The notes beneath the pieces were generated by a model, which worked only from the letters and a program-made list of their open reading frames with translations, did not search any database and had not been told where the DNA came from. DNA of 64,000 nucleotides, taken from contig CM000155.2 in NCBI GenBank assembly GCA_000004695.1, positions 1,504,001-1,568,000 of the forward strand. Direction: 5' to 3'. The translations under genes were made by a program, and so were the position numbers. Origin of the DNA: Dictyostelium discoideum. Taxonomy: Eukaryota. This document shows, in pieces, positions 20 to 25,190 of this stretch (the first letter of the stretch is position 1; each line of letters opens with the position of its first letter).

Positions 20-973
20 TTACTTACATTTATTATGACAAACATGGTCACAAGTACTACATAGGGTACTATGATATGGTGCATCTTTTAATTCATACTT
101 TTCAATTGTATTTTTTGTTGTATAATTTTTAAATGATTCTTTATCATTATTTGCCTTTTCCAATTGATGTTGATACTGAGATAAAGAATCTTGAAGCTTT
201 TGAAGATTTCCAATATCTGTTTTTGCTTTATGAAGAATTGATTTAATGTTGTGTCTATGGGCTTTCATTTCTCCAAAATCTTTGGTTGAAACTGATGACA
301 TCTTTGTTACACATTCAAGGATTCTATCTAAAGTTTGGAAAGAAAGTTTGAATTCAAGTTTTAATGATTCAACTGAAGTTGGGTCCCATAGTTTTGGATC
401 AGTACTGAATGCAGTATTATTCATATGAAATACATATTCTGGATTAACATTTATTTCAATTGAATTAATATCAAAGTTTCTTGTATGGCTAAGACAGTTG
501 GTAAACACAATGAAAACATTATTTAAAAGAGAATCAGGAATTGAACCACGGAGTCTTGTAATAACATTTTGAAGGTTAATTGTCATTCTTGGAACTGTAC
601 CATTTACTACAATTAATAGAGCGGACAAACTTGGGCAACTTTCTGCAGCATCAATAATTTTTCCAATATTGATATCATCTTGTTTAATACCACGTGTATC
701 TGATAAACCTGGAGTATCAATAAATACAAATTCTTTGGAGTCTTTTTTAAATGAATATTCATTACAAAGATCAGTTTGACTTTTTGTTCTATCTTTTGAA
801 TCATTTTCACTTGACTTTACGTTTTGATTTGAATTTATAAATTTGGTGCCAATTGAAACTTTAATTTTATCTGGAATTTCTCCATTTAAAAAATAATTGG
901 TTATTGTATTAATTAATGTAGATTTTCCACATCCAGTTTCACCAATAACAAGCAATGAAAATTTGTTTGACAT
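20..973 (-). CDS. P-loop GTPase, AIG1/GIMAP-like G domain
   Basis: 317-aa ORF with G1 motif GETGCGKST and G3 motif DTPG followed by LLIVVNGT; stop codon TAA at 20-22; single ORF, splicing not excluded. Confidence 0.5.
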   Translation of the reverse strand: MSNKFSLLVIGETGCGKSTLINTITNYFLNGEIPDKIKVSIGTKFINSNQNVKSSENDSKDRTKSQTDLCNEYSFKKDSKEFVFIDTPGLSDTRGIKQDDINIGKIIDAAESCPSLSALLIVVNGTVPRMTINLQNVITRLRGSIPDSLLNNVFIVFTNCLSHTRNFDINSIEINVNPEYVFHMNNTAFSTDPKLWDPTSVESLKLEFKLSFQTLDRILECVTKMSSVSTKDFGEMKAHRHNIKSILHKAKTDIGNLQKLQDSLSQYQHQLEKANNDKESFKNYTTKNTIEKYELKDAPYHSTLCSTCDHVCHNKCK

Positions 974-1800
974 TTTATTTTATATGATGTTGATGAAGAA
1001 AAGAAAAAATATTGTGAATAAAAAAAAAAAAAAATTGTTTAATAAAAAGAAAAAAAAAAAAAATTCTTCACAAAATCTTTCAAATTTTTTTTTTTTTTAA
1101 AAAATTAAGTTTTGTAATTTTGTGCCCCATCTAAATCTTTAACAAACCAAAAAAAAAAAAAAAAAAAAATTTATTATTGGGTGAAATATTTTTTAATGGG
1201 TTTCTTTGGGACTCCAATGAAAAGTATAACAGTAATTAAAAAAATGCATAAATTTTTTTTTATTTTTTTTTTTCCTTTTGAGATTTTGTTTTTCACTAAC
1301 CAGATTTTAAATTTTTATCTGTAAAAAAAAAAAAAAAATGAAAAAAAAAAAATATCCAATTAATTTTTTCTTAAAAAAAAAAAAAAATTATATCCAATAA
1401 ATTTTTTCTAATAAAAAAAAAAAATAAAGATCAATTTTAAATAATAATTCAATTATAAAAAAAAAAAAAAATTTAATACTTTTTAGTATTAGTAACCTAT
1501 CAAACAGCTTTCTTAAAAATCATAATAGAATTTTGGTTGTCATTGATAGATTTTAAAATTTCTTCATATGTTGTTGAAGTGTTTTTGGATGCATTTTGTA
1601 CTGAATACTTCAAAGTTCCCCATAAAATGATTGAATTGACCAATCATATATTAAACAATATTGATCTTTATTTTAAATTCTTTTTTTAATATTTGGATGG
1701 GATTAGCCCTATTATAAATAAAAAACTAATTTAATTGATAAGTAATTTAATCATTTATAATTTTTTTTTTTTTTTTTTTATACCCTGGTTGGGTTATTTT

Positions 1801-1852
<52 letters not shown>

Positions 1853-1983
1853 TCTTAATCTGTTTTTATTATTTTTTGTTATTTTAAATCTTTTATAAGT
1901 TTTTTTTTATTTTTTTTTTATTTTTTTTTATTTTTTTTTTTTAATTTCTAAAAATTAATATGGATAATGGATTGATCAGTCTA

Positions 1984-2310
1984 TTATTTTTTTTCTATTG
2001 CAGTTTTAATATTAACTTTATCTAAAATTGTTTGAAAAATATCAAATAATTCGTCATAAAACAATTCAAAGTTTTCTTTAATTGCAAAAAATAAATCTAC
2101 TTGATAATGAAAATTAAAATTTTTTTTGATATCATTTAATTTTCTTATTGCTTTTTCATCATATTGCGATAAAATTGTTTTTGAAATAATTAAAATAAAT
2201 GTAATATGTTGGAGCCCTTCTTTTGAATTTTTAGAATTAAAGTTTGAAATTTGTGAATTTAATTTGGAAAAACAATCATATTCATCCCACTCTGTGTTAT
2301 ATAAATCCAA
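1984..2310 (-). CDS. short ORF, possibly a 3' exon of the 2515-3262 gene
   Basis: 108-aa ORF on the same strand directly downstream; no domain recognised. Confidence 0.2.
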   Translation of the reverse strand: MDLYNTEWDEYDCFSKLNSQISNFNSKNSKEGLQHITFILIISKTILSQYDEKAIRKLNDIKKNFNFHYQVDLFFAIKENFELFYDELFDIFQTILDKVNIKTAIEKK

Positions 2311-2514
2311 AATAAAAATTACAAATTGTGAACAATATTTTGAATGAATTGAAAATTTTGATTTTTGATTTCAGACTGAACCATTTTCATTATTTTCTAT
2401 GACATTAAACACCGATTCTGGGGTTGATAATTTTTTAAAATAATCTTCAAAAAATGGTTTACCTACTTGAACATCCTCAAGACCAAATAATGAAATTTGA
2501 ATTTTTTTTAATTT

Positions 2515-3262
2515 TTATAAAATATCATTTGATATTGGTGGTTCAGGAGTAATATTTTGTAATTTAACCATTTGGCCAGTCAATAGTTTTAAACTTGAAA
2601 AATTAATTTCCATAACTTTGCAATGTGTTATAAACAAAGCAAAATTTTCAATACCAAGTAAATTTGTTGCTTTTAATGTTTCTAATTTTGGTAAAATTAA
2701 AATTAAATCTTTTTGTTGATTAAAATCATAATTCTTTACATTCGAAAAACCAATATCTAAATATTTTAAACTATTTTTAAAGTTTGAGTTTATGAAATCA
2801 ATAATATTATTATAGTTTTGAATTGTTAAAGTATCTTTTAAAGTCAATCTTTGTAAATGTGAACTTTCAACCAAAAAACAATTTAATTTTGAACAATTTG
2901 TAATATTTAATTCAACTAAATGATTTGCTTTAATTTTTATAGTTGATAATTTTGAACAATCTTGAAAACTTAAATGAGTTAAAACTGGGAATTCCATTAA
3001 ACTGAATATATTTGAAAGATCAACAAATGAAATACAATTTACTAAATTTATTTTTGATAGATTTGAAAAATTAAATGTCGACTTTAAAATTGATGAATTA
3101 AAGATACTACTATTTAAAATGTTTAAAATATAAAGTTTTGGTTTTTTTAATTTTAATGATTTAAAAAATATAGTTTCTTCTTGAGGTGTTATTATTGAGA
3201 AATCTGTATTATTAAATAATTTTTCTAAAACTCCTTCATTTATAATTTCATTGAGCTTGTTG
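2515..3262 (-). CDS. Leu-rich / FNIP-like repeat protein, main exon; true start and splicing unresolved
   Basis: The ORF continues in frame upstream of the track M at 2997 (…ISFVDLSNIFSLMEFPVL…) until a stop near 3262. Repeated L-x-x-L-x-L-x-N and an FNQ motif are typical of Dictyostelium FNIP/LRR-like repeats. Confidence 0.35.
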
Positions 3263-3510
3263 AAAGTTTATATATTTTTTTTTTTATATGGTATAAGGGT
3301 GGGAATTTTATTATATTTTTTCAAGTTTTATAATTTATTTTTTTAAATATTAATAAAATAGAATTAAAAACATTACTGGTACCAGTAATACTATTTTTTA
3401 AAATAAAAAAATATTAAATTAATAAATAAATTCATTAAAAAAAAAAAAAAAAAAAAAAAATAAATTAAAAAAATAAATATTGTAAATAACTTCTCAAACT
3501 AGCTTCTTTT

Positions 3511-3610
3511 GTTGTAGGGAATTTTCCATAAAATTTCACTACAGTAGCGTAGTGAATTTTATTATTTAATTTCACTACAGTAGCGTAGTGAAAAAAAAAA
3601 ATCACTGACC
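3511..3610. repeat. left inverted terminal repeat; contains a 2x direct repeat ttcactacagtagcgtagtgaa
   Basis: reverse complement of 6872-6971 with a single mismatch. Confidence 0.85.
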
Positions 3611-3712
3611 TTAAATTTTTTTTTTTTTCAAAAAACAAATAAAGTTTATTAAATTGAAATTTTATTTTTTGTTTTAATTATTATTTTATTTATTTTTATT
3701 AAAAATAATGGT

Positions 3713-3745
<33 letters not shown>

Positions 3746-3886
3746 CAATTTTTTTTTTTTAAATTTTTTTCAATTTTTATTTGTTTATTAAATTGTAATT
3801 TTATTTTTTGTTTTAATTATTATTTTATTTATTATTATTGTTAATTTTTTTTTTTTTTCAATTTTTTTTTTTTTAATTTATTTTTA

Positions 3887-6445
3887 TTAATTTATTTTTA
3901 TTAACTCCCTGAGTTGTTCAATTGCTTGATTTACCATATCACTGTAAACACTGCACACAATTGAATTTTTTCTAGCTTTGTTACCTCTGGTGCATTTGAT
4001 GTTTTTGCATTTTCCTTTGTATACAAAAAAGTCCAAATATAATTCGTTTTCTATTACAGTTTTTACACAATGTTGGTGAAATTGTTTTGATTTTAATTCT
4101 AATGCTTCTAACATCATATTTGAATTTTTAACGATTAAAGCATCACCACTATTTACATATAGTACTTTGGCTGCTTTTTCGAGGAATTTAGTCAAATTTT
4201 CCTCTGAATCTAACTATTCTTCATTGCCATATTCAATGGCTAAATTTCTTAAGAGTTTTATCGAATCTATTAATTCTTCGATCATTCTTTTTTTTTGAAA
4301 TTTTTTTTTATTTTGTTTTTTCAATTTTTTTTTTTTATTTTGTTTTTTCAATTTTTTTTAAGTTTTATTTTTTTTTATTTTTTTTTATTTTTTTTAACAA
4401 ATGTAATTTTTTTTTATTTTTTTCAATTTTTTTTTTTTTTAATTTTTAATTTTTTTTTTTTTTTTTAATTTTTTGTGTTGATTTGTGTTTTTTTTGTTTT
4501 TTTGATTTGGCCACTTGTTTTTATTTTCTAATTTCCCCATACCCCCTTCTATTAATTGCAACCAAATCAAGTTCTAATTTTTGTGTCCTTGTTGACTTTG
4601 TTTTTGCAACTTTTTTTGAAGGTATCACATTAACGATTTTTCCTATTGATGGTGATTTGGAAGGTGATTTAAATGGTGATTTAAATGGTGAATTGGAAGG
4701 TGATTTAAATGGTGAATTGGAAGGTGAAATGGATGGTGATTTGGAAGGTAATTTAAATGGTGATTTGGAAGGTGATTTAAATGGTGATTTAAATGGTGAA
4801 TTGGAAGGTGAAATGGATGTTGATTTGAGAGGTGATTTGGATGTTGATTTGAGAGGTGATTTGGATGGTTTAGAATGTGATTTTAAAGGAGGTTTATTAA
4901 CAATTGGTATCTTATGAGGACGGCCTCTGAGACGTTTAACAGTTGTTACTATACCACTACCAGATTGTGGTATAGTATATGATGGTATTATTTGCACTTG
5001 AGGTATTGGTGGTACTATTTCTTTTAAATTCATATCCTTTCTCAAACAATTCATTAAATTTGGCGCTGTTGGATTATTATTTAAAAATGGGAGTATTTCT
5101 TCTTGTTCCATTTCATTATTGAGTTTGTGTTGAAATGGATTATCGTTAATGATAGGTGGAATATTTGATGGATTGTTAAGAGCATCTTCCAAAACCCTAA
5201 ATGGATCATTTTGTGTTACCAATTGATGCAAGTTGAAATTGGATAAATCCTTACCAAGATTTTTAATAAACTGAACCAGAAATTCAATAACTTTCCCATC
5301 ATTATTTAAATAAAGACCAGAAGTAAAAGAATCAATATCTTTTTGTATGTTTGGCGATGTTCTAAAAATATCAACTGTTGATTGTTTATAAAGAACCAAC
5401 TTGTTACCTCCTACAAAACCAGAGTATAAACCTTTTTTTTGAAGGCTATTGATTCCATCTTCCAAAAATTCAAGTTTATAAAGTTGTTTAGTGTCTTCCT
5501 GTATTACCTTATGAATTTTACACAAAATCAATATTTTCTATTAGAATTAAATATAAAATTTGTTAATTATTACTGTTTCATATATTATTAATCTTTATGT
5601 TTTAATTACTTACATTATTTTTTTTAATTTCTAGAAAGAGTACAGTATCACCAACTTTCAATCCCTTTGGTGGTTTTGAATTCCATTGATTTTGGTAACT
5701 TGTGAGATTTTCAAGAATAATAGCTGTTATTTCTTCTTTTGAAACATCTGAAACACCAATTGATTGAGAGTCTTGTTCTGATTGCACATTAATAAACAAA
5801 GGTACAATACCAACAGCTTGAGATGGTGTCATTTTAATTGTTCTTGTTTTTGTATTATTGTAATCATACAAAGCTTGTTTTAATAGTTCAGAAAGAGACC
5901 TAGAAGTACCATCAAGAAAACTAAAATTTATTTATAAATGATTAATTAATAAACATATCGATAATTTATATTGTTCAAAATATCATACTCTTGTTGTTTT
6001 AATTTTGAGATCCTCTCCTTGATAGTTCGATTCAATCTTTCTACCATACCTTGAGTTGTTGGTGTACGAGGAGCTCCATGTGCTGACTTGGAGCCTGGAA
6101 AAAGTTTTAGGAATTCTTTTTGGACTTTGTTTTTAAATTCACGTCCATTATCGCAGTGCCATACTTTCACAGAGTTTTAATATAAAAGTTACAAAACATC
6201 ATATAAAAAATGATTGATACCAAACCTTTTATTCTATTTCGTTGGCAAATGTCACACGTATCTACTGCATCAGATACAAAAGAATACAATCCCATATTAT
6301 AATATTTAGTCTTGTAGTTCCCATAGGTTGCATCTCTTCCTATATGACCTTTATGCATTTCTTCCCAGAGTGATACCATTCTATAATCATTAATTACTTC
6401 TAAACACACTTCTTTTGATATATTTCTATCTCCGCCACAATTCAT
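3887..6445 (-). CDS. integrase-like transposase, multi-exon (exons approx 6445-6227, 6170-5997, 5929-5602, 5531-4521, 4195-3887)
   Basis: Consecutive minus-strand ORFs from the track: HHCC zinc finger (H..H…CDICQ), catalytic core, C-terminal module, AT-hook RGRP plus (SPLKS)n repeats, and a C-terminal 102-aa ORF. One intron is supported at about 5997-5930 (GTATGA…TTTTAG; joins …ISKLKQQ to DFLDGTSRSL…). A second at about 6226-6171 joins …RNRIK to VWHCDNGREF. Confidence 0.55.
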
Positions 6446-6871
6446 GACTTTTTTTTCAATTCTAAATAATTTTTCTTTTCTGTTTCTGTTTTTTATTGGT
6501 CAGAATTTAAAAAATGATTGTGTTATGGTAAGGAAAAATATTTACTCATCATGTAAAAATTTATAATTTTTATGTTTAGTATTTTCAAAATTATTATCTT
6601 CAATAAATTTTAAATAATTTATAATTTCATTTATTTTATCTTGTTTCATTTTGGGAAAATGAAAATAAAAAAAAAAAAAAAAAAAAAAAAAGTTTTGTTG
6701 GGGAAAAAAAAAAAAAATTTTGGCGCAAAAAAAAAAAAAAAAAATAAAATAAAAAAAAAAAAAAATTAAATTAAAAAAAAAAAATTAAAAAACTTTAATA
6801 GAACTTATAATCAAATAAAAGATAATAATTTAATAAACTTTATTTGTTTTTTGAAAAAAAAAAAAATTTAG

Positions 6872-6971
6872 GGTCAGTGATTTTTTTTTTTCACTACGCT
6901 ACTGTAGTGAAATTAAATAATAAAATTCACTACGCTACTGTAGTGAAATTTTATTGAAAATTCCCTACAAC
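6872..6971. repeat. right inverted terminal repeat
   Basis: reverse complement of 3511-3610. Confidence 0.85.
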
Positions 6972-7025
6972 ATCTTTCATCAATTTCAATTGTAATCATT
7001 TTTTTTAATTTTTTTATTTATTTTT

Positions 7026-8243: not shown

Positions 8244-9479
8244 CTAATTGTGAAGAATATTTATATCTTTAATTGATTTTGCAAATTTAATATTTTGAGC
8301 TTTAATTTTATAATATTCTTCAAATGCTTGTTTTGGACCATATTCACCACTATATAAAACTTTTAAAAACTTATCAGTTGTTTGTGCACCTCCAACTTCT
8401 AATTGATGAAACAATGAAAGATCAAAAAATATTGTTTTAGAGTAATTTAAATATTTTTCATATATTGACATTGATTCATCCAATAGAAATGGTTTATATT
8501 TGATTGTTACATATGGTTCTAAATATTGAAAAACGTCTAAATGAGTTATTTTATTATCACCATTGCTTATAAATAAACTTTTTAATCTTATTAATTTTGA
8601 ATAAACATTCTCAATTTGACCAGGTGAAAATGGAACTCCAACAACGGTATCATTATTATCAAATTTCTTTTCTTTTATTGATTTCATTAAACTAATGGAT
8701 GAATCATGATACTTTTGTAAATGATTTAGCCAATCTACCATAAAATCATCGATATCTATTTTAACAAATTGTTCAACTATTTTATGATCAACAAATTCAA
8801 ACATATGATCTAAAAGAAAAATATCATTTTCAACTGGCAATGAAATTTCACCATTGTGAATTAAAATTGAAGGGAAAAAAGCTAAAAAACAATATTCATC
8901 TGGATCATAACAAGATATTTTATATGCATCATTTAATGATATATCTTGTTCCCATCCATTTGATTCAATAATAATTGTACCAGTTGGTTTAAAAATATCT
9001 TGATCAATTTCTTTACCACCCTTTATGCATTCTAAAACATTATTTACTAATTCTTCAATATAAACTTTACAATCATCTATTAATTGTAAAAATGATTCTT
9101 TTACTTTTTCACTATAAATACTATCAATTAAATTTATAATACTCTCATTTTGTGATTTAATTTTTGAAAATAATTTACTTTCAACTGATGGTGATTTAAT
9201 AAAATCAGATTTAAATGATAAATCAAGTAATCTTTCTGGTGGGTTCAATGATTGAAATAATTCTCTACATTGCATATAATGACTTTTTTCACCATTTTCA
9301 ATTTCTATTAAATAATCTTGAAATAAAAATTTAGTTTTTGAACACAATGATTGTTTACATAATTTATTTAATTTCTCTATTAAAGTTTTTGCATTTCTTA
9401 AATTATATTTATTTTCAACTGTAATAGATTTTTCTTTAGGTTCATGAATTACAATTCTTTCTTCATAATCTGTAAACAT
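8244..9479 (-). CDS. hypothetical protein, 411 aa, no recognisable domain
   Basis: long uninterrupted ORF with ordinary amino-acid composition in an AT-rich context. Confidence 0.45.
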   Translation of the reverse strand: MFTDYEERIVIHEPKEKSITVENKYNLRNAKTLIEKLNKLCKQSLCSKTKFLFQDYLIEIENGEKSHYMQCRELFQSLNPPERLLDLSFKSDFIKSPSVESKLFSKIKSQNESIINLIDSIYSEKVKESFLQLIDDCKVYIEELVNNVLECIKGGKEIDQDIFKPTGTIIIESNGWEQDISLNDAYKISCYDPDEYCFLAFFPSILIHNGEISLPVENDIFLLDHMFEFVDHKIVEQFVKIDIDDFMVDWLNHLQKYHDSSISLMKSIKEKKFDNNDTVVGVPFSPGQIENVYSKLIRLKSLFISNGDNKITHLDVFQYLEPYVTIKYKPFLLDESMSIYEKYLNYSKTIFFDLSLFHQLEVGGAQTTDKFLKVLYSGEYGPKQAFEEYYKIKAQNIKFAKSIKDINILHN

Positions 9480-11207: not shown

Positions 11208-12007
11208 TGATTCATAATTCTCTGCTTTTTATTGTAGTTTAATGAATTTTGCGATTTTGTAAAATGTAAGTTTGCCAACTTCATATCTTATATTTGGAAT
11301 TTGGTAATGCAAATAATTATCATTCATTTTTTTATTTATTTTTTTTTTTTAAATACATTTTTTTTTAGTCGTTTGAGGTTTGACAAAATATTGATGAACC
11401 ATATTTAATTTTTAAATAAAATATCATTAACAACCAAATATTTAAATATTTCCATTATTATAAAATCTTATTGGGCTAACAACTAAAAAATCTTTATGTG
11501 GTAACATCTAAAAAAATCTTTAATAATTAAATATTCTATTAACTAAAATCATTTCAGTATAACAGCTAAAAAATCTAGTTATTGTGAAAAATTAAAAAAT
11601 AAAAAAATAAAAAAATAAAAAAATAATAAAAAAAAAATAAATTTTTTTTTTTTTTTTTATATTATTTTTTTTTATAGATAAAAAACCTAAAATGGAAAAT
11701 CATTTAATAAATAAAAAAAAAAAAATCATAACATTATTTAAAATAATAAAAACTATACTCAGTTGTGTAGGAATTTTTTGTACATTTAAAAATAATTTTA
11801 TAGGTAATTCAATAGATTTTTTATATGACGATTCTATTAATAATTTAAATCGAGATTTATATATTTTTGATCCTACAGCACTAAACAAATACTTATATAG
11901 GAATAAAACCAATTGGAATTATAGACAAAAAAAAGAAACAAAACAATGTAAAAAAAAAAAACTCTGTTGTCAAAATTGATGACCGTTGTCAGTTAGATAC
12001 TCAACAG

Positions 12008-12112
12008 ATGTCAATGGTCAAAAGAATTGTTAGACCAATTTTTATGAAAAAATATACAAAGTCAAGGTTATATTGCGAATCTATTATCGATTTCCTATTA
12101 TATTATTTAATT
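12008..12112 (+). CDS. PIF/Harbinger-type DDE transposase (DDE_Tnp_4), exon 1
   Basis: true ATG at 12008; donor GTAAGT at 12113. Confidence 0.55.
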
Positions 12113-12247
12113 GTAAGTAAAAAAAAAAAAAGAAATTATAATTTAAATTTTTTTTTTCCATTTCTATTTCTATTTTTTAAAATTATTATTATTTTTATTA
12201 TTACTATTTAAAAAAAAAAGTACTAATTAAAAATAATATAATTTCAG

Positions 12248-12856
12248 AATGGAGGAAAGTTAATTGTCCACTCAAACACTTTTAAATGTTCAATTTCAAC
12301 ACTCTCTAGATATAAAAGAGATGGAATTCCTATAATGTGTGAAGCTTTAAGATTTGTAATTCCAACATGGAAACCTGAACCGAATACCATTTATGCAATT
12401 GATTGCACTACTTCTCCAATATGTAGACCCCACCCGGGACAAAGAGAGTTTTATAGGGGAGACCAAGGTTATCACTTTTTAGGTGTTCAATTAATAGTTG
12501 ACATTACCAAATTTTTAATTGTTGATGTAATAATTGGCAAGGGTAGAAATAATGATTCAGGTTTGGCAAATATTTCAGGTACAACAGATTTGGTGTTAAA
12601 AAATAAATTGGTCATTCTTGCAGATAGAGGATACTCTAAAAATAAATTCGTTACTCCCAATAGTCTTGATTTAATAGAAGGTGAACCAACAGAAGAACTT
12701 GTAACCGAATTTAGAGATTTTGTTTCCAAAAATAGATCATGTGTCGAAAATGCAAACCAAAGATTCAAGTCTCTGGATTTATTCAACAAACCTATAAAAT
12801 CTCGTCCAATTTCTCATGCCTATACAACTTTGTTGGGGGTATATTGCAAATATTAA
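12248..12856 (+). CDS. PIF/Harbinger-type DDE transposase (DDE_Tnp_4), exon 2
   Basis: Acceptor …aatttcag at 12247; in frame with exon 1. Catalytic motifs AIDCTTSPICRP (IDGT-like), LADRGYS (DxGY) and RSCVENANQRFKSL (R..VE..f..LK). Stop at 12854-12856. Confidence 0.65.
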   Translation, partial: NGGKLIVHSNTFKCSISTLSRYKRDGIPIMCEALRFVIPTWKPEPNTIYAIDCTTSPICRPHPGQREFYRGDQGYHFLGVQLIVDITKFLIVDVIIGKGRNNDSGLANISGTTDLVLKNKLVILADRGYSKNKFVTPNSLDLIEGEPTEELVTEFRDFVSKNRSCVENANQRFKSLDLFNKPIKSRPISHAYTTLLGVYCKY

Positions 12857-13222
12857 TTTAATATATAATTCTCAAAAACATGTAATATCTAGTTTCGAAG
12901 AAAAAGTGAGACTTATTCATGGGAATTATCTCTAAAAAAAAAAAATAAAATAAAATAAAATAAACACTGCTCCAGTAAAAAACAAATATCTTTTTTATTT
13001 TTCTATTTTTATTTTTATAACTAAAAAAAAAGAAATAACCGACAATTTAGCACAAAATTTTTTTTTTTTTTTTTTTTTTCGCTAAAATAAATTGTGAAAA
13101 AACCTTATTTTAGATATTAATTAATTATTAATAATTAATAATAATATTAATTATTAATTATTAATTATTTCCAAAGCAAAGAAAATACTTTCATTATTTT
13201 AAGTTCTCTCTTTTATTATAAC

Positions 13223-13372
13223 TTTTTTTTTTTTTTTTTACCTGTGATCAGACCTTCAAGGAATGTCCTTGTGTCTTTTCGGCGGTGTTTGTTTTTTTTT
13301 TTTTTTTTTTTTTTTTTTACCTGTGATCAGACCTTCAAGGAATGTCCTTGTGTCTTTTCGGCGGTGTTTGTT
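13223..13372. repeat. two direct copies of a 52-bp unit (acctgtgatcagaccttcaaggaatgtccttgtgtcttttcggcggtgtttg), each preceded by a poly-T run
   Basis: copies at 13240-13291 and 13319-13370; read on the minus strand each copy ends in poly(A), like extreme 3'-end fragments of poly(A) retroelements. Confidence 0.5.
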
Positions 13373-13463
13373 AAACGGTTTTATTTTTATTATTCAATTG
13401 TATTAAATTTTTTAAACTATATTATATCTTTCATTATAACTGAACATATATTAAAATTTATAT

Positions 13464-14745
13464 TTTTTTTTTTTTTTTTTTGATATAAATAAACTATTGT
13501 AGTATACAATTAGTATGTTATTTTTATTTATTTATTTTAGGTTTTTTAGTTTTTGTGAATTTAAAATGGTATGTTATTTTAGATTAGGTAATTAATAATT
13601 AATTGGTGGTGTAATTGTTGGAATTGGTTCATTTGTGTTTATGCTCCATTCTTTTTTAAATTTTTTGATGGTTTCAGACCATTGGGTTTCTTTTTGAGTT
13701 TTTGTGAAGTTGTTTTTAATTGAGTATTGGTTAAAGTTTGATAACGTTCTTGAATATTCCAATCTTATTAGCTTGTGCCATTTTGATTTTAATATATCAT
13801 AATCTAGTGTTGTGTTGTTTATTTGGTTGTTCCAATTATCAATTGATTGAGTTATATTGATGTCAAATAATGATTTGCATAACCATATCCATATTTGGTG
13901 AATAACTAATGAGATTATGTTCCAATATGCATGTGTTCTGACTAGATCAAGATTTGTGTTTATATAATTCCAGTTGAACCTGTATTTTTTATATTGTGCG
14001 TTTTCTGCAAAATGAAAATTAATATTGATAGTTGGATCTGGTTTAAATGCTTTGTTGTTTGTTTGTGGTTTATAAATGAGTGTGTATAATTTTGTTGTTT
14101 GGTTTTTTGTTAGTGACCAGTTTTTGTTTCCATTGCAATTTTTATATATAAAATATTTTAATTTGTCGTGGTTTATGAAGTTGATTGTGTGCTGACAATT
14201 GAAAAACAAATGACCATAGGGATCATTATTCATTTCATTGTTGCAAATGGGGCAAACTTTGTTGTGTAGATGATTAATCGGAAGACATCTAGCATGGAAT
14301 CTTTGCATTGTATCACGGCCTTTTGGATCTTTTAATTTTTGAATTTTGACAAATAGTTGGTCGTATGTGTATTTCCATAATAGTTGTATTGATTGTTGGT
14401 GCGAAGTAAGAAGTAGATCTGAATATTTCTTGCCAATATAGTCTTTTGATTTACATTGGTGATTGTTGAGTATTGTCGAGTAGATTTCTTTGAGTGTTGG
14501 TGGTAGTGGAATATTATTTGTGTTTAATGTTTGAGAGGTTTGATTTTTTATTAATATTGGTTGTAGGATTTGAACTTTATCTTTTAGATGTCCAATTTGA
14601 GTTGCATAGTTTTCCCATTCTTTTTTGATTTTTATAAGGTATGGAGAAGAGATTGATTTGTTGATGATTTGATCCATCCAACTTATCATGTATATTGAAT
14701 TATTTGCAGATTTATGCATTTGTAAAAATCTGTTGTATATCCAAA

Positions 14746-14747
<2 letters not shown>
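13464..14747 (-). mobile_element. 5'-truncated TRE3-like non-LTR retrotransposon fragment (ORF2 C-terminus + 3' UTR + poly(A))
   Basis: ORF 13592-14719 ends with KLKDPKGRDTMQRFHARCLPINHLHNKVCPICNNEMNNDPYGHLFFNC. This is homologous to, but diverged from, the C-terminal zinc-finger region of the ORF2 copies at 14919 and 20225. Poly-T (poly(A) on the minus strand) at 13464-13481. Confidence 0.55.
13592..14719 (-). pseudogene. ORF2 C-terminal fragment of the truncated TRE3-like element
   Basis: homology to the ORF2 C-terminus of the neighbouring elements; no RT core upstream. Confidence 0.5.
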
Positions 14748-14821
<74 letters not shown>

Positions 14822-14918
14822 TGGATTAACAAGATTGATATATGTCCATCTGTGTTAATACGAGTTTTATTTAATATTTATTTAAAGGCTTATCATTTAA
14901 GCTGAAGGGTTATTTTAA

Positions 14919-17900
14919 TCATATGAATTGATCAAAAGATATAATATTTGGGAGAGATGATTCTGGAATACAATAGTAATTAGCTGTAGTTTTTCTTAGC
15001 TTGATCGTTGAAGTGAGAAGGATCTTAGGATCTTTGAAGTTATTATGGTCTTTTGCTGATAAGTTTTTCAGATCTTTTGCTTTTTTGATGTATTCTAGAG
15101 TGGCCAATTTGTGCCATTTCTTTAGAAGGGAGCTGTATGATAGTGATTCATCTGTTAAAGGATCTTCACTGTATATTTGATTGCAAATCCAAATCCAAAT
15201 GTTGTGGAGGATAAGGGCCATTAGGTTTCTATATGCGAATGATCTGGTTAGATCATAGTCTATTGCTTTATAGTTCCATTCAAAGTATTCTTTGTGGAAT
15301 CTGTGGTTGGCGTAATCTGCATTCACTTCTTGATCTTTTTTGGCTGTCGGTGATAATTTTGGAGTTATTCTACTAATGAAATTGTTATTTTGCCTAATTC
15401 TTGTATGGTGCCAGTTTTTACCTTTGCCTGTGGTAATATAGATGAAATTTTTGAGTTTATTTATTTTTATGAATTGTTTTGTTTTCTTGCATGAGAAGAA
15501 CAGGTGACCGTATGGGTCTTTGCTCATATCTTCTTTGCAGAGTGGGCATTGTTTGTTGTGAAGGTAGTTTATTGGAAGGCATCTGGCATGGAATCTAAAC
15601 ATTGTATCTCTTGTTTTAGGGTCTTTTATCTTCAGTATGTTGTTGAAGAGTTGATTATAGCTGTAGCCTCTTAAGTTTAGAGATGATTGGAATTCCGTTT
15701 TAGGGATGGTTGGATTTTGGTCTTGAATTGTGGTATACCATTCTGCCAGTGAAAGTGGTTGTCCATTTTCGTTTTTTATGGATGTGAGATTATTGTTGAA
15801 GATTGCTTTTTTTATTCTTATTTTGTTCCATTCGTCTAAGTTTTCTTTTAGGTATCTGGATGTGAATTTGTTTTTTTGGATCTGATATTCCCAGCTTTTG
15901 TGATGAGATGAGTTTGTTTGTTTGGTTTCTAGTGCTAGGATGAACTGGTTTATGATCCAAAGTTTCTGCGCCAGTTGTCTCAATTCTATATTCCAAATGT
16001 TCCAGCCCCCTACTTTTAGTGGGTATCTTGCTCTTTTGGTTCTCATTAAATTAATAACTTGAAATCCACTAGCATTTTTGTTGTTTGGTGCCGATAAAAA
16101 CCATTCGACTAGTTTATTGATTTGGTTTAATTCCTCTTCCTTAAAGTTCTCTACATATGAATAGTAGGTTAATTTAGAGAGTGCGAATGCTTTGAGGATG
16201 TTGGTTTTGGTTTTGATTGTTGAGTCAGTGGTTTTCCATAGTACTAAGGATGATCTTATTGTGTTTAATATTTCTGGCATTTTTCTTGTTATCCCTTTGC
16301 CTGTGAAGAAGTATCCCAAGTATCTTTCTGGATTTGTAGATATTGGAATTCTTTGGTTGGTATTGTCTGGGTTGCCTATAAGAATTGATGAAGATTTGTC
16401 GATGTTTAGTTTTGAGGAAGTGGCTTTGCAAAATGAATTGAAGTGTTGTAGTACTAATTCAAGTTGTTGAGAGTCTGGGACCATTGAAGCCGAGTCGTCT
16501 GCAAAGCTTTGGAATTTCTCTCTGTGGTTGCTGTTGTTTAGAGGAAGGCCAGTAATTCGGTCATCTTGTAAAATTTTTCTAGCTAAAGCCTCTATTACAA
16601 GGACGAACAGGGTGGGTGATAGTGGATCTCCTTGTTTAACTCCTCTTTTGATCTCAAAGGGTATAGTAGTTCTACCATTAATTTCAATTCTTGCTTCAGA
16701 TTTGGTGAGTAGATTCATTATCAGGTTGATTATATTGGTTGGAATGTTGATGTGTTGTAGTGATCTAAGTATTGAACCGTGTGAGATCGAGTCAAAAGCT
16801 TTTTCGAAATCATATAGTGTAATTATTCCGTTAATTCTTTTATCATTACAATAGTTGATTAATTCGTTCATTGATATGATATTATCTAGAATGAATCTGC
16901 CTGGTACGAAACCTTTTTGATTGTGGTTGATCACTTTCGTTAGTATTGGGATTATTCTATTGTTTATTAGCTTTGAGTGGATTTTATATATACAATTAGC
17001 CAGTGTAATTGGTCTTCTGTTTTTGATTAGTTCGGGGTCTCCCTTTTTAGGTATCGTGATAATGAGGCCTTCTTTGTAATTTTTGCTAATTAGATGAGGA
17101 TTTCTTAGAGTGTCGTTGAATGCTGAGGCCAGTATTGGAGCTAGTTTTTCTTTGTGTGTTATGTAGAATAAGTTTGGAATTCCATCTGGACCTGGAGATT
17201 TGTGTGGGTTCAGTTGTTTTATTACTTCTAGGATCTCTTGTGAGGTGAATTCATTTTCAAGGTTGTCCCATGTTGAGTCCCTGGTCACTGTCCAATTTTC
17301 CAACATTTCGTAATGAGATGGTGGGTCATCTTCTTTGTAGTCATAAAGATTTGAGTAATATTTTACGTATTCTTCTTCGATCAATTCCTGTTTGTTAATT
17401 GTTCTACCTTGTGCATCTTTTACTGCGTTGATGGTGAAATCATTGTGTCTTTTCTTGATTCTCGCGGAGATGTACTTGAGTGAGGTTTCTTCGCAATAGT
17501 TGTTCAATTCTTGTTTAAGTTGTTCTTCTCTTTTTTTAGATTCATTTATTGCTGAAAGGGTTGCGAAGGCTTGGTCTTTAAATTCTGTCTCTAGTAGGGA
17601 GATTAGATTTTTGATGTTTGCCTTATTGTTGTAGTCGTTTTGTTTTTGAAATTCGGTGTATAGTTGTTTTATTTTGTTCAGTAAGCTGTTGAGTTGAGAG
17701 AAGGAAATAGAGTTATGGTTGGCTGACAGCTCCCTTGAATAATCGTTAAGTAGGAAGTCTATTTTCTTAAGCATTATGCTTGAGAGGATTGAGGATTTTT
17801 TTAATCTCCATCTGCGCTTGTTCATCTGTATGTTGGGTAGAGTGAAAGTGGTTGATAGGAAGTTGTGATCTGATAGAGGTATGTCGTTAATTTTTGGGGG

Positions 17901-18623
17901 GATTAGGTTCCTTAGGTATAATTGGCTGTAGTTGATTAAGCTATTGTTAAGGTATATTCAGTCTAGTCTCCTTTCCAAGATTCTTGTGAGGTTATTGTTT
18001 GTGTTGTGTATCGTTCTTGAGAAGGTGGGTCTTTTATTTAGTTGGTCCATATCCATTAGGTTATTTGAAATTCTGATGGCTTCGATTACTGTGGCCATCT
18101 CATCTGGGGATTGTGTTGTCAAGTTGCCTTGGTCATCATTTGATGTGTGATTGTCATTGAAGTCTAAACAGTTGAAGTCTCCTGCTATGATGTCGATGTT
18201 TTTATTAGGGTTAGACGTTAGGTTGTGGTATTGGTTGTTGAAGTGTTTGTTTAGTGTTGAAGCTAGTGTTTTTCTTTTATCAGGTTGGGCCGGGGCGTAT
18301 ATGGCCAAGATTCTCGTTGTGGTATCTTTTATTAGAATGTCTGATATTATTAGTCTACCTTCTATTATGAATATTGGTGAGAGTTTTATGTTTTGGTTGT
18401 TGTGGTTTAGTATTCCTATTCCGTTGCCTCTGTTGGTTGCGCTAATGATGGAGCCAGGGAATAGCTGGTGTGCTTGTGTTGCGTCGGCGTTGAGTTCATT
18501 GACTATGGTTAGTGCCAATGAGTTTGGGGGGGATTGGGATTTGATAAAGTCTGTTTTGTTTTTGAAGGAGGTGTCAGTGCCCCAACCTCTGACATTCCAT
18601 TGGTTGATTTTGATTACTACCAT
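14919..18623 (-). pseudogene. TRE3-like ORF2 (APE + RT + zinc finger), copy A, interrupted
   Basis: The APE ORF 17958-18623 and the RT ORF 14919-17825 are separated by a stop or frameshift in 17826-17957. Confidence 0.55.
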
Positions 18624-19882
18624 TATGAGATGATATCGATCTCCTCTTGGGAGTCGTATAGCTGCGGTTTGGATGGTGAAGGGTAGATACTCTCTATGAA
18701 GCTCTCAATGATTCCTTTACTTTCTTTTTTGACAGGTGTCTTAGGGGTGGATGGGATGTAAGGGTTGCTTCTATTTATTGTTGGTGAGAGTTGGGTGACT
18801 TCATTGTTTGAGTGGATTTCCTCGTTCTTGCGTTTATGTGATGGAGGGATGTTTAGTGTCTTCTCTCTGTTTTCCGAGGATGAATGGATGTTATTGCTCG
18901 TTTTGTTGGCATTGTCTTTTTGGATGGCGTTGGATGTTGTGGTAGTGGTTGTGGTGGGTTTGACAGATTGAGATTCTGCTGGGTTTTTGGGGGGAAGAGG
19001 TTGAGATGACTTTTTTGCTTGGGCTTTTTTCTCTTGGGGGTGATTGTTTTTCAGACTGATTGTTTGCTGGGGGTTGTTTGTTTGTTGTTGTGGTTTTGGT
19101 TGAGAGGATTTGATTGCTATCCTGTTTTGGATGTTGGGAGGATCATCTGTCATCTCATCTTCTAATGGTTCTTCCGTGTTGTTTGACTTCTCTACTTTCT
19201 TGTTTTTCTTTGNTGAGGAGTAGGTTTTGGTGGCCGTTCTGATGGTAAAGTTTGCGATTTCTGTAATGTGTTGGCCAGATTTCATTTGATCGCCTATTTT
19301 GCATTCTATTAGACCGAATACTATGAGGTGGTCGGTGGAGTATATAGTATTGTATATTGCATAGGGTATTTCTTCTGCAAAGGCAGTTTTGATGAGGGCG
19401 TCCACTATTCCTGCCTTTTCTCTGGGAATTCTTACTCTTCCTGTGAGGACGTGGAAGTCTCTACTGGAGGTGATGAAGGTTCCCAATTTGCTTCTATCTC
19501 TAATGATATTTAGGAGAGATTGTTCGTTTTTAATCATCAGGTGGATCATTTTTCTAGTTCCTTTGCCTATGTATATCTTGTCGAATGGGATATCGTAGTT
19601 TGAGAGTGTTTTTCTCATTTCTTCTAACCCCTTGAGATCCATTTTGGGGAATTCGAGTGTAATTGGGTAGAATCCGTTGTTCTTCTCATAGGTTGAGAGC
19701 GCAGTCATGTTCAATATGGTCTCGCAGTATTTGGAGATGTCTTTGAGGCCTATTGATAGTTTGGGGTAGGTCTCCTTTATCTCTGCTGTTTTTGTGGAGA
19801 ATTCCTTAATGAAGTTCTCCGATGCCTCGTCCATATGGGTGGAGGGGTTGGCCATTTTAGCCGCGTCTGCGTAGGAATTCAT
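18623..19882 (-). CDS. TRE3-like ORF1 (419 aa), copy A
   Basis: ORF with a basic/Q/T-rich C-terminal half. Contains one ambiguous base (n at 19212, giving X in the translation). Stop TAA overlaps the ORF2 ATG (TAATG) at 18621-18625. Confidence 0.6.
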   Translation of the reverse strand: MNSYADAAKMANPSTHMDEASENFIKEFSTKTAEIKETYPKLSIGLKDISKYCETILNMTALSTYEKNNGFYPITLEFPKMDLKGLEEMRKTLSNYDIPFDKIYIGKGTRKMIHLMIKNEQSLLNIIRDRSKLGTFITSSRDFHVLTGRVRIPREKAGIVDALIKTAFAEEIPYAIYNTIYSTDHLIVFGLIECKIGDQMKSGQHITEIANFTIRTATKTYSSXKKNKKVEKSNNTEEPLEDEMTDDPPNIQNRIAIKSSQPKPQQQTNNPQQTISLKNNHPQEKKAQAKKSSQPLPPKNPAESQSVKPTTTTTTTSNAIQKDNANKTSNNIHSSSENREKTLNIPPSHKRKNEEIHSNNEVTQLSPTINRSNPYIPSTPKTPVKKESKGIIESFIESIYPSPSKPQLYDSQEEIDIIS

Positions 19883-20082
19883 CTCGATGGGATTCCTTTG
19901 AATCGGCGATTTGGTATGTTAGATCTGTAGATCGTGGTGGATTGGTGATTTTTTTTGAAAGATTGGTTAAAATTGACCGAGATTAAAGATAGAAAAGGAT
20001 GAATTACTTTTCACGTGTATCTTGTATCCTCTTGATCGCGGTACGGTTTTTTTTTCCAAATCTTTTGAGCAACTTGTCGTAG

Positions 20083-20127
<45 letters not shown>

Positions 20128-20224
20128 TGGATTAACAAGATTGATATATGTCCATCTGTGTTAATACGAGTTTTATTTAATATTTATTTAAAGGCTTATC
20201 ATTTAAGCTGAAGGGTTATTTTAA

Positions 20225-23200
20225 TCATATGAATTGATCAAAAGATATAATATTTGGGAGAGATGATTCTGGAATACAATAGTAATTAGCTGTTGTTTTT
20301 CTTAGCTTGATCGTTGAAGTGAGAAGGATCTTAGGATCTTTGAAGTTATTATGGTCTTTTGCTGATAAGTTTTTCAGATCTTTTGCTTTTTTGATGTATT
20401 CTAGAGTGGCCAATTTGTGCCATTTCTTTAGAAGGGAGCTGTATGATAGTGATTCATCTGTTAAAGGATCTTCACTGTATATTTGATTGCAAATCCAAAT
20501 CCAAATGTTGTGGAGGATAAGGGCCATTAGGTTTCTATATGCGAATGATCTGGTTAGATCATAGTCTATTGCTTTATAGTTCCATTCAAAGTATTCTTTG
20601 TGGAATCTGTGGTTGGCGTAATCTGCATTCACTTCTTGATCTTTTTTGGCTGTCGGTGATAATTTTGGAGTTATTCTATTAATGAAATTGTTATTTTGCC
20701 TAATTCTTGTATGGTGCCAGTTTTTACCTTTGCCTGTGGTAATATAGATGAAATTTTTGAGTTTATTTATTTTTATGAATTGTTTTGTTTTCTTGCATGA
20801 GAAGAACAGGTGACCGTATGGGTCTTTGCTCATATCTTCTTTGCAGAGTGGGCATTGTTTGTTGTGAAGGTAGTTTATTGGAAGGCATCTGGCATGGAAT
20901 CTAAACATTGTGTCTCTTGTTTTAGGGTCTTTTATCTTCAGTATGTTGTTGAAGAGTTGATTATAGCTGTAGCCTCTTAAGTTTAGAGATGATTGGAATT
21001 CCGTTTTAGGGATGGTTGGATTTTGGTCTTGAATTGTGGTATACCATTCTGCCAGTGAAAGTGGTTGTCCATTTTCGTTTTTTATGGATGTGAGATTATT
21101 GTTGAAGATTGCTTTTTTTATTCTTATTTTGTTCCATTCATCTAAGTTTTCTTTTAGGTATCTGGATGTGAATTTGTTTTTTTGGATCTGATATTCCCAG
21201 CTTTTGTGATGAGATGAGTTTGTTTGTTTGGTTTCTAGTGCTAGGATGAACTGGTTTATGATCCAAAGTTTCTGCGCCAGTTGTCTCAATTCTATATTCC
21301 AAATGTTCCAGCCCCCTACTTTTAGTGGGTATCTTGCTCTTTTGGTTCTCATTAAATTAATAACTTGAAATCCACTAGCATTTTTGTTGTTTGGTGCCGA
21401 TAAAAACCATTCGACTAATTTATTGATTTGGTTTAATTCCTCTTCCTTAAAGTTCTCTACATATGAATAGTAGGTTAATTTAGAGAGTGCGAATGCTTTG
21501 AGGATGTTGGTTTTGGTTTTGATTGTTGAGTCAGTGGTTTTCCATAGTACTAAGGATGATCTTATTGTGTTTAATATTTCTGGTATTTTTCTTGTTATCC
21601 CTTTGCCTGTGAAGAAGTATCCCAAGTATCTTTCTGGATTTGTAGATATTGGTATTCTTTGGTTGGTATTGTCTGGGTTGCCTATAAGAATTGATGAAGA
21701 TTTGTCGATGTTTAGTTTTGAGGAAGTGGCTTTGCAAAATGAATTGAAGTGTTGTAGTACTAATTCAAGTTGTTGAGAGTCTGGGACCATTGAAGCCGAG
21801 TCGTCTGCAAAGCTTTGGAATTTCTCTCTGTGGTCGCTGTTGTTTAGAGGAAGGCCAGTAATTCGGTCATCTTGTAAAATTTTTCTAGCTAAAGCCTCTA
21901 TTACAAGGACGAACAGGGTGGGTGATAGTGGATCTCCTTGTTTGACTCCTCTTTTGATCTCAAAGGGTATAGTAGTTCTACCATTAATTTCAATTCTTGC
22001 TTCAGATTTGGTGAGTAGATTCATTATCAGGTTGATTATATTGGTTGGAATGTTGATGTGTTGTAGTGATCTGAGTATTGAACCGTGTGAAATCGAGTCA
22101 AAAGCTTTTTCGAAATCATATAGTGTAATTATTCCGTTAATTCTTTTATCATTACAATAGTTGATTAATTCGTTCATTGATATGATATTATCTATAATGA
22201 ATCTGCCTGGTACGAAACCTTTTTGATTGTGGTTGATCACTTTCGTTAGTATTGGGATTATTCTATTGTTTATTAGTTTTGAGTGGATTTTATATATACA
22301 GTTAGCCAGTGTAATTGGTCTTCTGTTTTTGATTAGTTCGGGGTCTCCCTTTTTAGGTATCGTGATAATGAGGCCTTCTTTGTAATTTTTGCTAATTAGA
22401 TGAGGATTTCTTAGAGTGTCGTTGAATGCTGAGGCCAGTATTGGAGCTAGTTTTTCTTTGTGTGTTATGTAGAATAAGTTTGGAATTCCATCTGGGCCTG
22501 GAGATTTGTGTGGGTTCAATTGTTTTATTACTTCTAGGATCTCTTGTGTTGTGAATTCATTTTCAAGGTTGTCCCATGTTGAGTCCCTGGTCACTGTCCA
22601 ATTTTCCAACATTTCATAATGAGATGGTGCGTCATCTTCTTTGTAGTCATAAAGATTTGAGTAATATTTTACGTATTCTTCTTCGATCAATTCCTGTTTG
22701 TTGATTGTTCTACCTTGTGCATCTTTTACTGCGTTGATGGTGAAATCATTGTGTCTTTTCTTGATTCTCGCGGAGATGTACTTGAGTGAAGTTCTTCGCA
22801 ATAGTGTTCATGTTCAATTCTTGTTTAAGTTGTTCTTCTCTTTTTTTAGATTCATTTATTGCTGAAAGGGTTGCGAAGGCTTGGTCTTTAAATTCTGTCT
22901 CTAGTAGGGAGATTAGATTTTTGATGTTTGCCTTATTGTTGTAGTCATTTTGTTTTTGAAATTCTGTGTATAGTTGTTTTATTTTGTTTAGTAAGCTGTT
23001 GAGTTGAGAGAAGGAAATAGAGTTATGGTTGGATGACAGCTCCCTTGAATAATCGTTAAGTAGGAAGTCTATTTTCTTAAGCATTATGCTTGAGAGGATT
23101 GAGGATTTTTTTAATCTCCATCTGCGCTTGTTCATCTGTATGTTGGGTAGAGTGAAGGTGGTTGATAGGAAGTTGTGATCTGATAGAGGTATGTCATTAA

Positions 23201-23828
23201 TTTTTGGGGGGATTAGGTTCCTTAAGTATAATTGGCTGTAGTTGATTATGCTATTGTTAAGGTATATTCTGTCTAGTCTCCTTTCCAAGATTCTTGTGAG
23301 GTTATTGTTTGTGTTGTGTATCGTTCTTGAGAAGGTGGGTCTTTTATTTAGTTGGTCCATATCCATTAGGTTATTTGAAATTCTGATGGCTTCGATTACT
23401 GTGGCCATCTCATCTGGGGATTGTGTTGTCAAGTTGCCTTGGTCATCATTTGATGTGTGATTGTCATTGAAGTCTAAACAATTGAAGTCGCCTGCTATGA
23501 TGTCGATGTTTTTTTTAGGGTTAGACGTTAGGTTGTGGTATTGGTTGTTGAAGTGTTTGTTTAGTGTTGAAGCTAGTATTTTTCTTTTATCAGGTTGGGC
23601 CGGGGCGTATATGGCCAAGATTCTCGTTGTGGTATCTTTTATTAGAATGTCTGATATTATTAGTCTACCTTCTATTATGAATATTGGTGAGAGTTTTATG
23701 TTTTGGTTGTTGTGGTTTAGTATTCCTATTCCGTTGCCTCTGTTGGTTGCGCTAATGATGGAGCCAGGAAATAGCTGGTGTGCTTGTGTTGCGTCGGCGT
23801 TGAGTTCATTGACTATGGTTAGTGCCAA
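20225..23828 (-). pseudogene. TRE3-like ORF2, copy B, frameshifted
   Basis: The APE ORF 22746-23828 and the RT ORF 20225-22801 overlap out of frame. A 5-bp insertion (tcgat, about 23924-23928) near the ORF1/ORF2 junction is absent from copy A. Confidence 0.55.
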
Positions 23829-23936
23829 TGAGTTTGGGGGGGATTGGGATTTGATAAAGTCTGTTTTGTTTTTGAAGGAGGTGTCAGTGCCCCAACCTCT
23901 GACATTCCATTGGTTGATTTTGATCGATTACTACCA

Positions 23937-25190
23937 TTATGAGATGATATCGATCTCCTCTTGGGAGTCGTTTAGCTGCGGTTTGGATGGTGAAGGGTAG
24001 ATACTCTCTATGAAGCTCTCAATGATTCCTTTCCTTTCTTTATTGACAGGTGTCTTAGGGGTGGATGGGATGTAAGGGTTGCTTCTGTTTATTGTTGGTG
24101 AGAGTTGGGTGACCTCGTTGTTTGAGTGGATTTCCTCGTTCTTGCGTTTATGTGATGGAGGGATGTTTGGTGTCTTCTCTCTGTTTTCCGAGGATGAATG
24201 GATGTTAGTGCTCGTTTTGTTGGCATTGTCTTTTTGGATGGCGTTGGATGTTGTGGTAGTGGTTGTGGTGGGTTTGACAGATTGAGATTCTGCTTGGTTT
24301 TTGGGGGGAAGAGGTTGAGAGGATTTTTTTGATTGGGCTCTTTTCTCTTGGGTTGATTGTTTATCAGACTTATTGTTTGCTGGGTTGTTTGTTTGTTGTT
24401 GTGGTTTTGGTTGAGAGGATTTGATTGCTATCCTGTTTTGGATGTTGGGAGGATCATCTGTCATCTCATCTTCTAATGGTTCTTCCGTGTTGTTTGACTC
24501 TACTTTCTTATTTTTCTTTTGTGAGGAGTAGGTTTTGGTGGCCGTTCTGATGGTAAAGTTGGCGATTTCTGTATTGTGTTGGCCAGATTTCATTTGATCG
24601 CCTATTTTGCATTCTATTAGACCGAATACTAGGAGGTGGTCGGTGGAGTATATAGTATGGTATATTGCATAGGGTATTTCTTCTGCAAAGGCAGTTTTGA
24701 TGAGGGCATCCACTATTCCTGCCTTTTCTCTTGGAATTCTTACTCTTCCTGTGAGGACGTGGTAGTCTCTACTGGAGGTGATGAAGGTTCCCAATTTGCT
24801 TCTATCTCTAATGATATTTAGGAGAGATTGTTCGTTTTTAATCATCAGGTGGATCGTTTTTCTAGTTCCTTTGCCTATGTATATCTTGTCGATTGGGATA
24901 TCGTAGTTTGAGAGTGTTTTTCTCATTTCTTCTAACCCCATGAGATCCATTTTGGGGAATTCGAGTGTAATTGGGTAGAATCCGTTGTTTTTCTCGTAGG
25001 TTGAGAGAGCAGTCATGTTCAATATGGTCTCGCAGTATTTGGAGATGTCTTTGAGGCCTATTGATAATTTGGGGTAGGTCTCCTTTATCTCTGCTGTTTT
25101 TGTGGAGAATTCCTTAATGAAGTTCTCTGATGCCTCGTCCATATGGGTGGAGGGGTTGGCCATTTTAGCCGCGTCTGCGTAGGAATTCAT
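23937..25190 (-). CDS. TRE3-like ORF1 (417 aa), copy B
   Basis: 97-98% identical to copy A ORF1 at protein level. Confidence 0.6.
   Translation of the reverse strand: MNSYADAAKMANPSTHMDEASENFIKEFSTKTAEIKETYPKLSIGLKDISKYCETILNMTALSTYEKNNGFYPITLEFPKMDLMGLEEMRKTLSNYDIPIDKIYIGKGTRKTIHLMIKNEQSLLNIIRDRSKLGTFITSSRDYHVLTGRVRIPREKAGIVDALIKTAFAEEIPYAIYHTIYSTDHLLVFGLIECKIGDQMKSGQHNTEIANFTIRTATKTYSSQKKNKKVESNNTEEPLEDEMTDDPPNIQNRIAIKSSQPKPQQQTNNPANNKSDKQSTQEKRAQSKKSSQPLPPKNQAESQSVKPTTTTTTTSNAIQKDNANKTSTNIHSSSENREKTPNIPPSHKRKNEEIHSNNEVTQLSPTINRSNPYIPSTPKTPVNKERKGIIESFIESIYPSPSKPQLNDSQEEIDIIS

Follow-up and report, generated by a model that had tools for sequence, protein, structure and literature searches.

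A short, probably non-autonomous copy of the transposon Tdd-4 in Dictyostelium discoideum and its absence from a nearly identical genome

Tdd-4, a DNA transposon of Dictyostelium discoideum described in 1999 and annotated in dictyBase, is the element on which the Ginger2/Tdd superfamily was founded, and the superfamily has been used in arguments on the origin of the integrases of long terminal repeat (LTR) retroelements. According to the abstract of Wells 1999, Tdd-4 reportedly has 145-bp inverted terminal repeats, TG...CA ends, six introns, 15 SPXX repeats, and both HHCC and Asp-Asp-Glu (DDE) motifs, and a 3.8-kb form and a deleted 3.4-kb form are both said to have been trapped by insertion into a plasmid. 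The element considered here lies at positions 3510-6972 of a 64,000-nucleotide stretch of D. discoideum DNA (contig CM000155.2, positions 1,504,001 to 1,568,000; G+C 25%), hereafter the window, with its gene on the minus strand, and is very probably a short form of Tdd-4 that carries a 394-bp deletion and would need full-length copies in trans. It fits the 3.4-kb form just mentioned and is probably the same form. The element is the known Tdd-4, ordinary and already described, and its identification has little consequence beyond bookkeeping; its absence from a near-identical D. discoideum genome is direct evidence of very recent movement of deleted Tdd-4.

In published work, TDD-4 is given as 3,839 bp long and present in more than 10 copies, with 5-bp target duplications and TGTNR termini, and the 5-bp duplication and TGTTG-type termini are recorded for both TDD-4 and TDD-5 (PMC2836005). 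The window copy and its family are consistent with this account in termini, duplication, and copy number, the full-length copies measuring 3815-3831 bp. The host, the TG...CA (TGTNR) ends, terminal inverted repeats (TIRs) of ~145 bp, the 5-bp duplication, the H2C2 finger, the DDE-type core, the multi-intron gene, the SPXX tail, and multi-copy status are all common to Tdd-4 and the window copy, and there is no difference in kind between them, the window copy having 394 bp less, including the first Asp, and 24 bp more of SPXX sequence. Two integrase-type transposon families were found in the D. discoideum protein search, and the window copy falls in the abundant one, in which clusters 1 and 2 (90% clusters, the window copy included) together comprise 10 or more AX4 gene models. 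The second family (P0004/P0005) is only ~39-42% identical to the window protein, and its cluster contains DDB_G0290955, which dictyBase names Tdd-5. Tdd-5 (AF298206; DDB_G0290955) shares superfamily, host, and domain order (H2C2, integrase core, long C-terminal tail) with the window copy, and a 5-bp target duplication has been reported for it too (PMC2836005), but it is single or low copy; a TIR search in the Tdd-5-like locus L010 gave matches dominated by A/T-rich low complexity. As to expression, transcription of the Tdd-4 'collective' has been documented, with a 25-fold induction in cells that lack rblA (PMC3386910), and mutation of dnmA is accompanied by up-regulation of one Tdd-4 gene (PMC12405889).

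Tdd-4 also resembles the integrases of retroviruses and Gypsy LTR retrotransposons, with which it has in common TG...CA ends, the H2C2 finger, and a core of the DD(35)E type; among PDB structures, matches to the integrase cores of mouse mammary tumor virus (MMTV), human T-lymphotropic virus (HTLV), human immunodeficiency virus (HIV), and prototype foamy virus (PFV) were obtained at E=5e-6 to 3e-4. Unlike these elements, Tdd-4 has no LTRs, reverse transcriptase, ribonuclease H (RNase H), or GPY/F, and it has TIRs instead.

In a DNA alignment, the window copy is 394 bp short of the full-length copies, and the deletion junction, which joins AAAACT to CTGTG, lies between window positions 6173 and 6172. 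The deleted DNA begins within intron 2, the 3' part of which is lost, takes in exon 3 and intron 3 entirely, and extends into exon 4, the start of which is lost too. The full-length D. discoideum relatives (P0002, P0003, P0025, and others) are proteins of 693-715 residues that contain, between NRIK and VWHCDNGREF, 104 extra residues (GITKDF...VYDLTS...VVYIILCIDSFTKFATGR...GKPVK); these full-length proteins alone match Pfam rve, and they align with retroviral integrase cores (MMTV 5cz1, E=5e-6). Along with the first Asp, the deleted segment encoded the opening strands of the RNase-H-like integrase core, and the complete DDE triad of the rve core is absent from the window copy, which keeps the second D (DNGREF) and the E (GMVER) alone. 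Because D1, the first catalytic Asp, is deleted together with the front half of the core and the DDE triad is incomplete, the window copy is, judging from its sequence, unable to encode an active transposase and a non-autonomous, defective member of the family. An autonomous, fully functional copy with an active DDE transposase, as implied by an earlier sequence-only reading of the window, would be compatible with the unbroken spliced open reading frame (ORF) of 620 codons that canonical GT-AG introns allow, and with the intact H2C2 finger, second D, E, AT-hook, SPXX tail, and TIRs; it is nevertheless highly improbable, as the missing 104 residues belong to every full-length copy and include the VYDLT first-Asp region, the Pfam rve match of the full-length proteins is lost, and the CxxC motif stands only ~10 residues from DNGREF, a distance that does not leave room for strands one to three of an RNase H fold. 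The window protein, which corresponds to DDB_G0292352 and is named 'Integrase catalytic domain-containing protein' in UniRef, is thus without part of the catalytic domain for which it is named.

The D. discoideum assembly GCA_054883475.1 served as the comparison genome, both for other copies and for the orthologous site. Its locus L002 was found through the protein DDB_G0292336, which is encoded there too; in the window, the ORF that encodes it, identical to AX4 DDB_G0292336 (XP_629718.1), occupies 8244-9479 and is the neighbor of DDB_G0292352, the two accessions being consecutive. Window 12000-6973 aligns with L002 7482-12498 and window 3509-1 with L002 12494-15990, and the two blocks overlap by exactly 5 bases, TCTTT. 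L002 is an exact empty site, with a single TCTTT, no footprint, and the whole 3463 bp absent as a unit, and it is this alignment that sets the exact limits of the element; in the window, the pentamer is present on both sides as a 5-bp target-site duplication (left copy 3505-3509, right copy 6973-6977). The flanks of the window and L002 differ by 4 substitutions in ~9.8 kb, all other differences being homopolymer-length indels. Because the empty site is without the whole 3463 bp and retains one target pentamer, the two arms are one element. Separate elements, or solo ends that face each other by chance, have next to no probability as an explanation of the arms, given the matching 5-bp duplications around the pair, the absence of the 3463 bp as a unit, and five other Tdd-4 copies that repeat the same end-to-end architecture, each with its own 5-bp target duplication. 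The element has moved since the two almost identical genomes separated, and its mobility is recent under either polarity; that the insertion is recent follows from the empty site together with zero private substitutions, and not from the near-identity of the TIRs.

Some points weigh against the interpretation presented so far. The name Tdd-4 rests on several indirect lines of evidence that converge, with the identity of 99.2-99.3% to full-length copies serving as a proxy for comparison with the reference sequence. The first catalytic Asp is placed at VYDLT from the order of motifs, and the model of full-length P0003 that AlphaFold2 gave from 13 aligned sequences was too poor to show the position of D1 (mean predicted local distance difference test score, pLDDT, 43; predicted template modeling score, pTM, 0.29). 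The splicing of the deleted gene is predicted, and the acceptor of its 'intron 2' is a cryptic AG within former exon sequence. In addition, the polarity of the presence/absence difference needs an outgroup, and a precise excision in the GCA_054883475.1 strain, instead of an insertion in the lineage of the window, would be in keeping with the classification of Tdd-4 as a cut-and-paste element (PMC2836005). However, the empty site at L002 is exact, with one TCTTT and no footprint, whereas excision of a DDE element normally leaves the duplicated target and extra bases, and the window copy is without private substitutions in 3 kb, consistent with a young insertion. We therefore regard excision as unlikely and retain insertion in the window's lineage as the explanation of the difference.

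The termini of the element are TG...CA (TGTTG...CAACA), and its TIRs are near-perfect over 146 bp without gaps. The repeat at the 5' (gene-start) end occupies 6827-6972 on the minus strand and that at the 3' end 3510-3655 on the plus strand, and the two differ at only two positions: counted from the tip, position 18 is A at the 5' end and C at the 3' end, and position 102 is C at the 5' end and T at the 3' end. The tip 30-mer occurs twice in the window, once per strand, against 0 expected from shuffles. Inward of the 3' TIR, degenerate A/T-rich similarity carries on; a TIR longer than 146 bp was considered and rejected, as the similarity of 81% over ~320 bp was mostly poly-A/T, and the extension was not counted as TIR. 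The figure of 260 bp given for the TDD-4 TIR includes the degenerate extension (PMC2836005). Furthermore, the 22-mer TTCACTACAGTAGCGTAGTGAA has four exact matches, two per arm, against 0 expected from shuffles, at 3535-3556 and 3571-3592 on the plus strand and at 6890-6911 and 6926-6947 on the minus strand, with a spacing of 36 bp in each arm. Each 22-mer is a palindrome with 8-bp arms, TTCACTAC-N6-GTAGTGAA, and the paired repeats are putative transposase-binding sites. All seven copies examined have the identical pair of arm differences (A/C at 18, C/T at 102), which, because the same two recur throughout, are an inherited fixed asymmetry of the Tdd-4 family that gives no clock. TIRs of cut-and-paste elements, unlike LTRs, are not regenerated at transposition.

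These results modify the sequence-only reading in several respects. It had placed the element at 3511-6971, and the repeat-bounded unit is real, with true limits one base wider at each end; it had described 100-bp repeats with a single mismatch, which is true of the first 100 bp, but the repeat was truncated there. The two 22-bp direct repeats that it saw in each terminal repeat are confirmed. Its inference of recency from the near-identity of the repeats is invalid, since the same mismatches are found in seven copies, but its conclusion of a recently mobile DNA transposon is supported on the other grounds given above. The comparison of flanks with an empty site in another strain, which it had proposed, yielded such a site and also the TCTTT duplication, which it had not seen, and in view of the empty site the repeats do not come from two separate elements, the finding by which it would have been overturned.

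The deleted form is also found elsewhere. Two short copies in GCA_054883475.1, L003 (3426 bp, flanked by the duplication CAAAT) and L004 (3435 bp, flanked by GCTAA), have the same junction of AAAACT with CTGTG as the window copy (TCTTT), and the three have in common an extra 24-bp SPXX stretch that is absent from full-length copies. At the protein level, NRIK is joined to VWHCDNG in no fewer than three further gene models of AX4 (DDB_G0276645, DDB_G0282083, and DDB_G0292954). The window copy and L003 show 0 substitutions over element positions 207-3257; full-length copies are 99.9-100% identical to one another, and the short and full-length forms have 99.2-99.3% substitution identity, with ~12 core positions differing. 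Because the identical deletion junction stands at several loci with different target duplications, the deleted derivative is, on these sequence comparisons, one that has been mobilized in trans, and Tdd-4 would be a young, still active family with a non-autonomous sub-lineage.

Two side observations concern individual copies. The window copy and L003 differ in nothing but nine A<->T-type changes, all of which lie in A/T-rich sub-TIR stretches (6767-6806 and 3702-3715), which are situated at a roughly symmetric distance (~165-270 bp) from the element ends; the changes may represent alignment slippage or small local rearrangements. In addition, L001, a full-length Tdd-4 copy of GCA_054883475.1, is broken three times (~2112-2867, 4299-5056, and 6108-6867) by the same ~760-bp element, which resembles a miniature inverted-repeat transposable element (MITE) and has the TIRs CACAGCAAAGAAAAA...TTTTTTCTTCGCTGTG. 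The insertions bring the L001 copy to 6069 bp and corrupt its called 693-amino-acid protein. A search of the window for this MITE found none. The element may be thug-S, and homology to tdd-4 and to thugS together has been mentioned for one gene (PMC3386910).

This combination of intact ends, an internally deleted transposase gene, and mobilization in trans is similar to that of Ds of Ac and of KP of the Drosophila P element, in which the deleted form has likewise amplified to several loci, as with short Tdd-4; the transposase superfamilies are unrelated. In the mechanism that we propose, the transposase of a full-length (3.8-kb) Tdd-4 would bind the paired 22-bp subterminal repeats of the short copy, cleave at the TG...CA tips, and re-insert the element with a 5-bp staggered cut. 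The short copy would be a passenger that, since both 146-bp TIRs and the 22-bp repeats are kept, could still be recognized, cut, and re-inserted. Its protein, without D1 but still with zinc finger, AT-hook, and SPXX tail, would be catalytically dead and, as a conjecture, might compete for the ends; a repressor role such as that of KP is for the deleted Tdd-4 protein likewise conjecture only. A more far-reaching version, in which deleted Tdd-4 would be a distinct, currently amplifying lineage, its D1-less protein a trans-dominant regulator like KP, and the AX4 insertion an event on a laboratory timescale, appears doubtful.

The main ORF of the window copy, 620 codons from the ATG at 6649 on the minus strand, was assembled with four GT-AG introns, and a fifth adds a short 3' exon exactly as in the database model DDB_G0292352; the spliced product is 100% identical to the AX4 protein DDB_G0292352 / XP_629717.1, chromosome 6. 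All features that follow are on the minus strand. Exon 1 (6546-6649; ATG 6649-6647) gives the same N-terminus as in the full-length relatives P0003/P0025 and is followed by GT-AG intron 1 (6486-6545), which has alternative acceptors 6 or 24 nt further on. Within exon 2 (6226-6485), positions 6245-6355 encode the H2C2 (HHCC) zinc finger, with the motif H79-x2-H82-x29-C112-x2-C115 and a match to Pfam Integrase_H2C2 (PF17921) at E=1e-7 (32.4 bits vs. a cut-off of 25.5). The predicted chimeric 'intron 2' (6164-6225; GT...AG, 62 nt) has the deletion junction inside it, and the modeled exon junction of AGAATAAAAG with TATGGCACTG, a product of predicted splicing, is specific to deleted copies. Exon 3 (5989-6163) encodes the core remnant with the second catalytic D and the E, to which the rve_3 and MMTV integrase core alignments extend; the Pfam rve_3 match in the DDB_G0292352 product is below threshold. 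Exon 4 (5614-5920) is bounded by two GT-AG introns (5921-5988 and 5538-5613), and the long exon 5 (4521-5537), with its read-through stop at 4521-4523, encodes both the AT-hook KRLRGRPHK (4911-4937), with an RGRP core, and the SPXX repeat tail (4647-4892), in which there are 15 SP dipeptides and the underlying DNA repeats with a 12-bp period. A search for a GP[YF] tripeptide found none anywhere in the protein, and the Pfam scan gave no integrase C-terminal domain; transposases of Ginger2/Tdd are described as being without GPY/F (PMC2836005), an absence that the window protein shares.

With regard to this gene, the sequence-only reading was borne out in its spliced minus-strand gene with an HHCC finger, in its AT-hook and (SPLKS)n region, and in its assignment to the integrase-type transposons, although the element is Tdd-4 itself and not just Tdd-4-like. 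Its DDE core holds for the second D and the E but not for the first D, the segment of which is deleted; its two GT...AG introns have canonical boundaries, but four are needed for the main ORF and a fifth for the 3' exon; and its GPY/F-like tail has to be dropped.

Downstream of exon 5, an optional GT-AG intron of 256 nt (4287-4542) is used in the DDB_G0292352 model to join ...NRRG to the MIEEL...GNEE exon. The 3' coding region (3887-4286) consists of this short exon (4214-4286; TAG 4214-4216) and then an in-frame 108-codon ORF (3890-4213), and the in-frame TAG before this ORF is conserved between copies (L001). The ORF has several spaced cysteines, and automated annotations splice the region in three ways (P0044-P0046). 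It has no Pfam match, and its relatives were found in Tdd-4 copies only: a tblastn search of the Tdd-5-like loci gave a nested Tdd-4 fragment only, the ORF listing of L010 is without a counterpart, and none was detected in L009 or L010.

The insertion point is also of interest with respect to the host. In L002, a 269-amino-acid gene call at 12292-13488 extends across it, corresponding to window 7179 down to 2515 on the minus strand, and the C-terminal part of this call is the window ORF at 2515-2997. Measured from the ATG of this gene, the Tdd-4 insertion is 203 nt downstream, probably in its A/T-rich first intron, and may have split a host gene in AX4.

Other mobile elements are present in the window. 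Two adjacent non-LTR retrotransposon copies occupy 13592-25500 on the minus strand, and the same cluster is found in L002; their RVT_1 ORFs span 14919-17825 and 20225-22801, with a weak endonuclease/exonuclease/phosphatase match at 22746-23828. A tRNA-Ala(AGC) gene (25428-25500) lies ~240 bp from the upstream end of the cluster, which has the appearance of a TRE-type element targeted to tRNA genes. In the interval from the Tdd-4 copy to this retroelement cluster, window ~11997-12845 (L002 6626-7474) corresponds to a 237-amino-acid gene call of the other assembly with DDE_Tnp_1 / DDE_Tnp_4 (PIF/Harbinger-type) matches, which suggests another DNA-transposon remnant. Finally, a minus-strand ORF at window 20-973 has AIG1 / MMR_HSR1 GTPase matches and is part of a 776-amino-acid gene call at L002 15018-17412.

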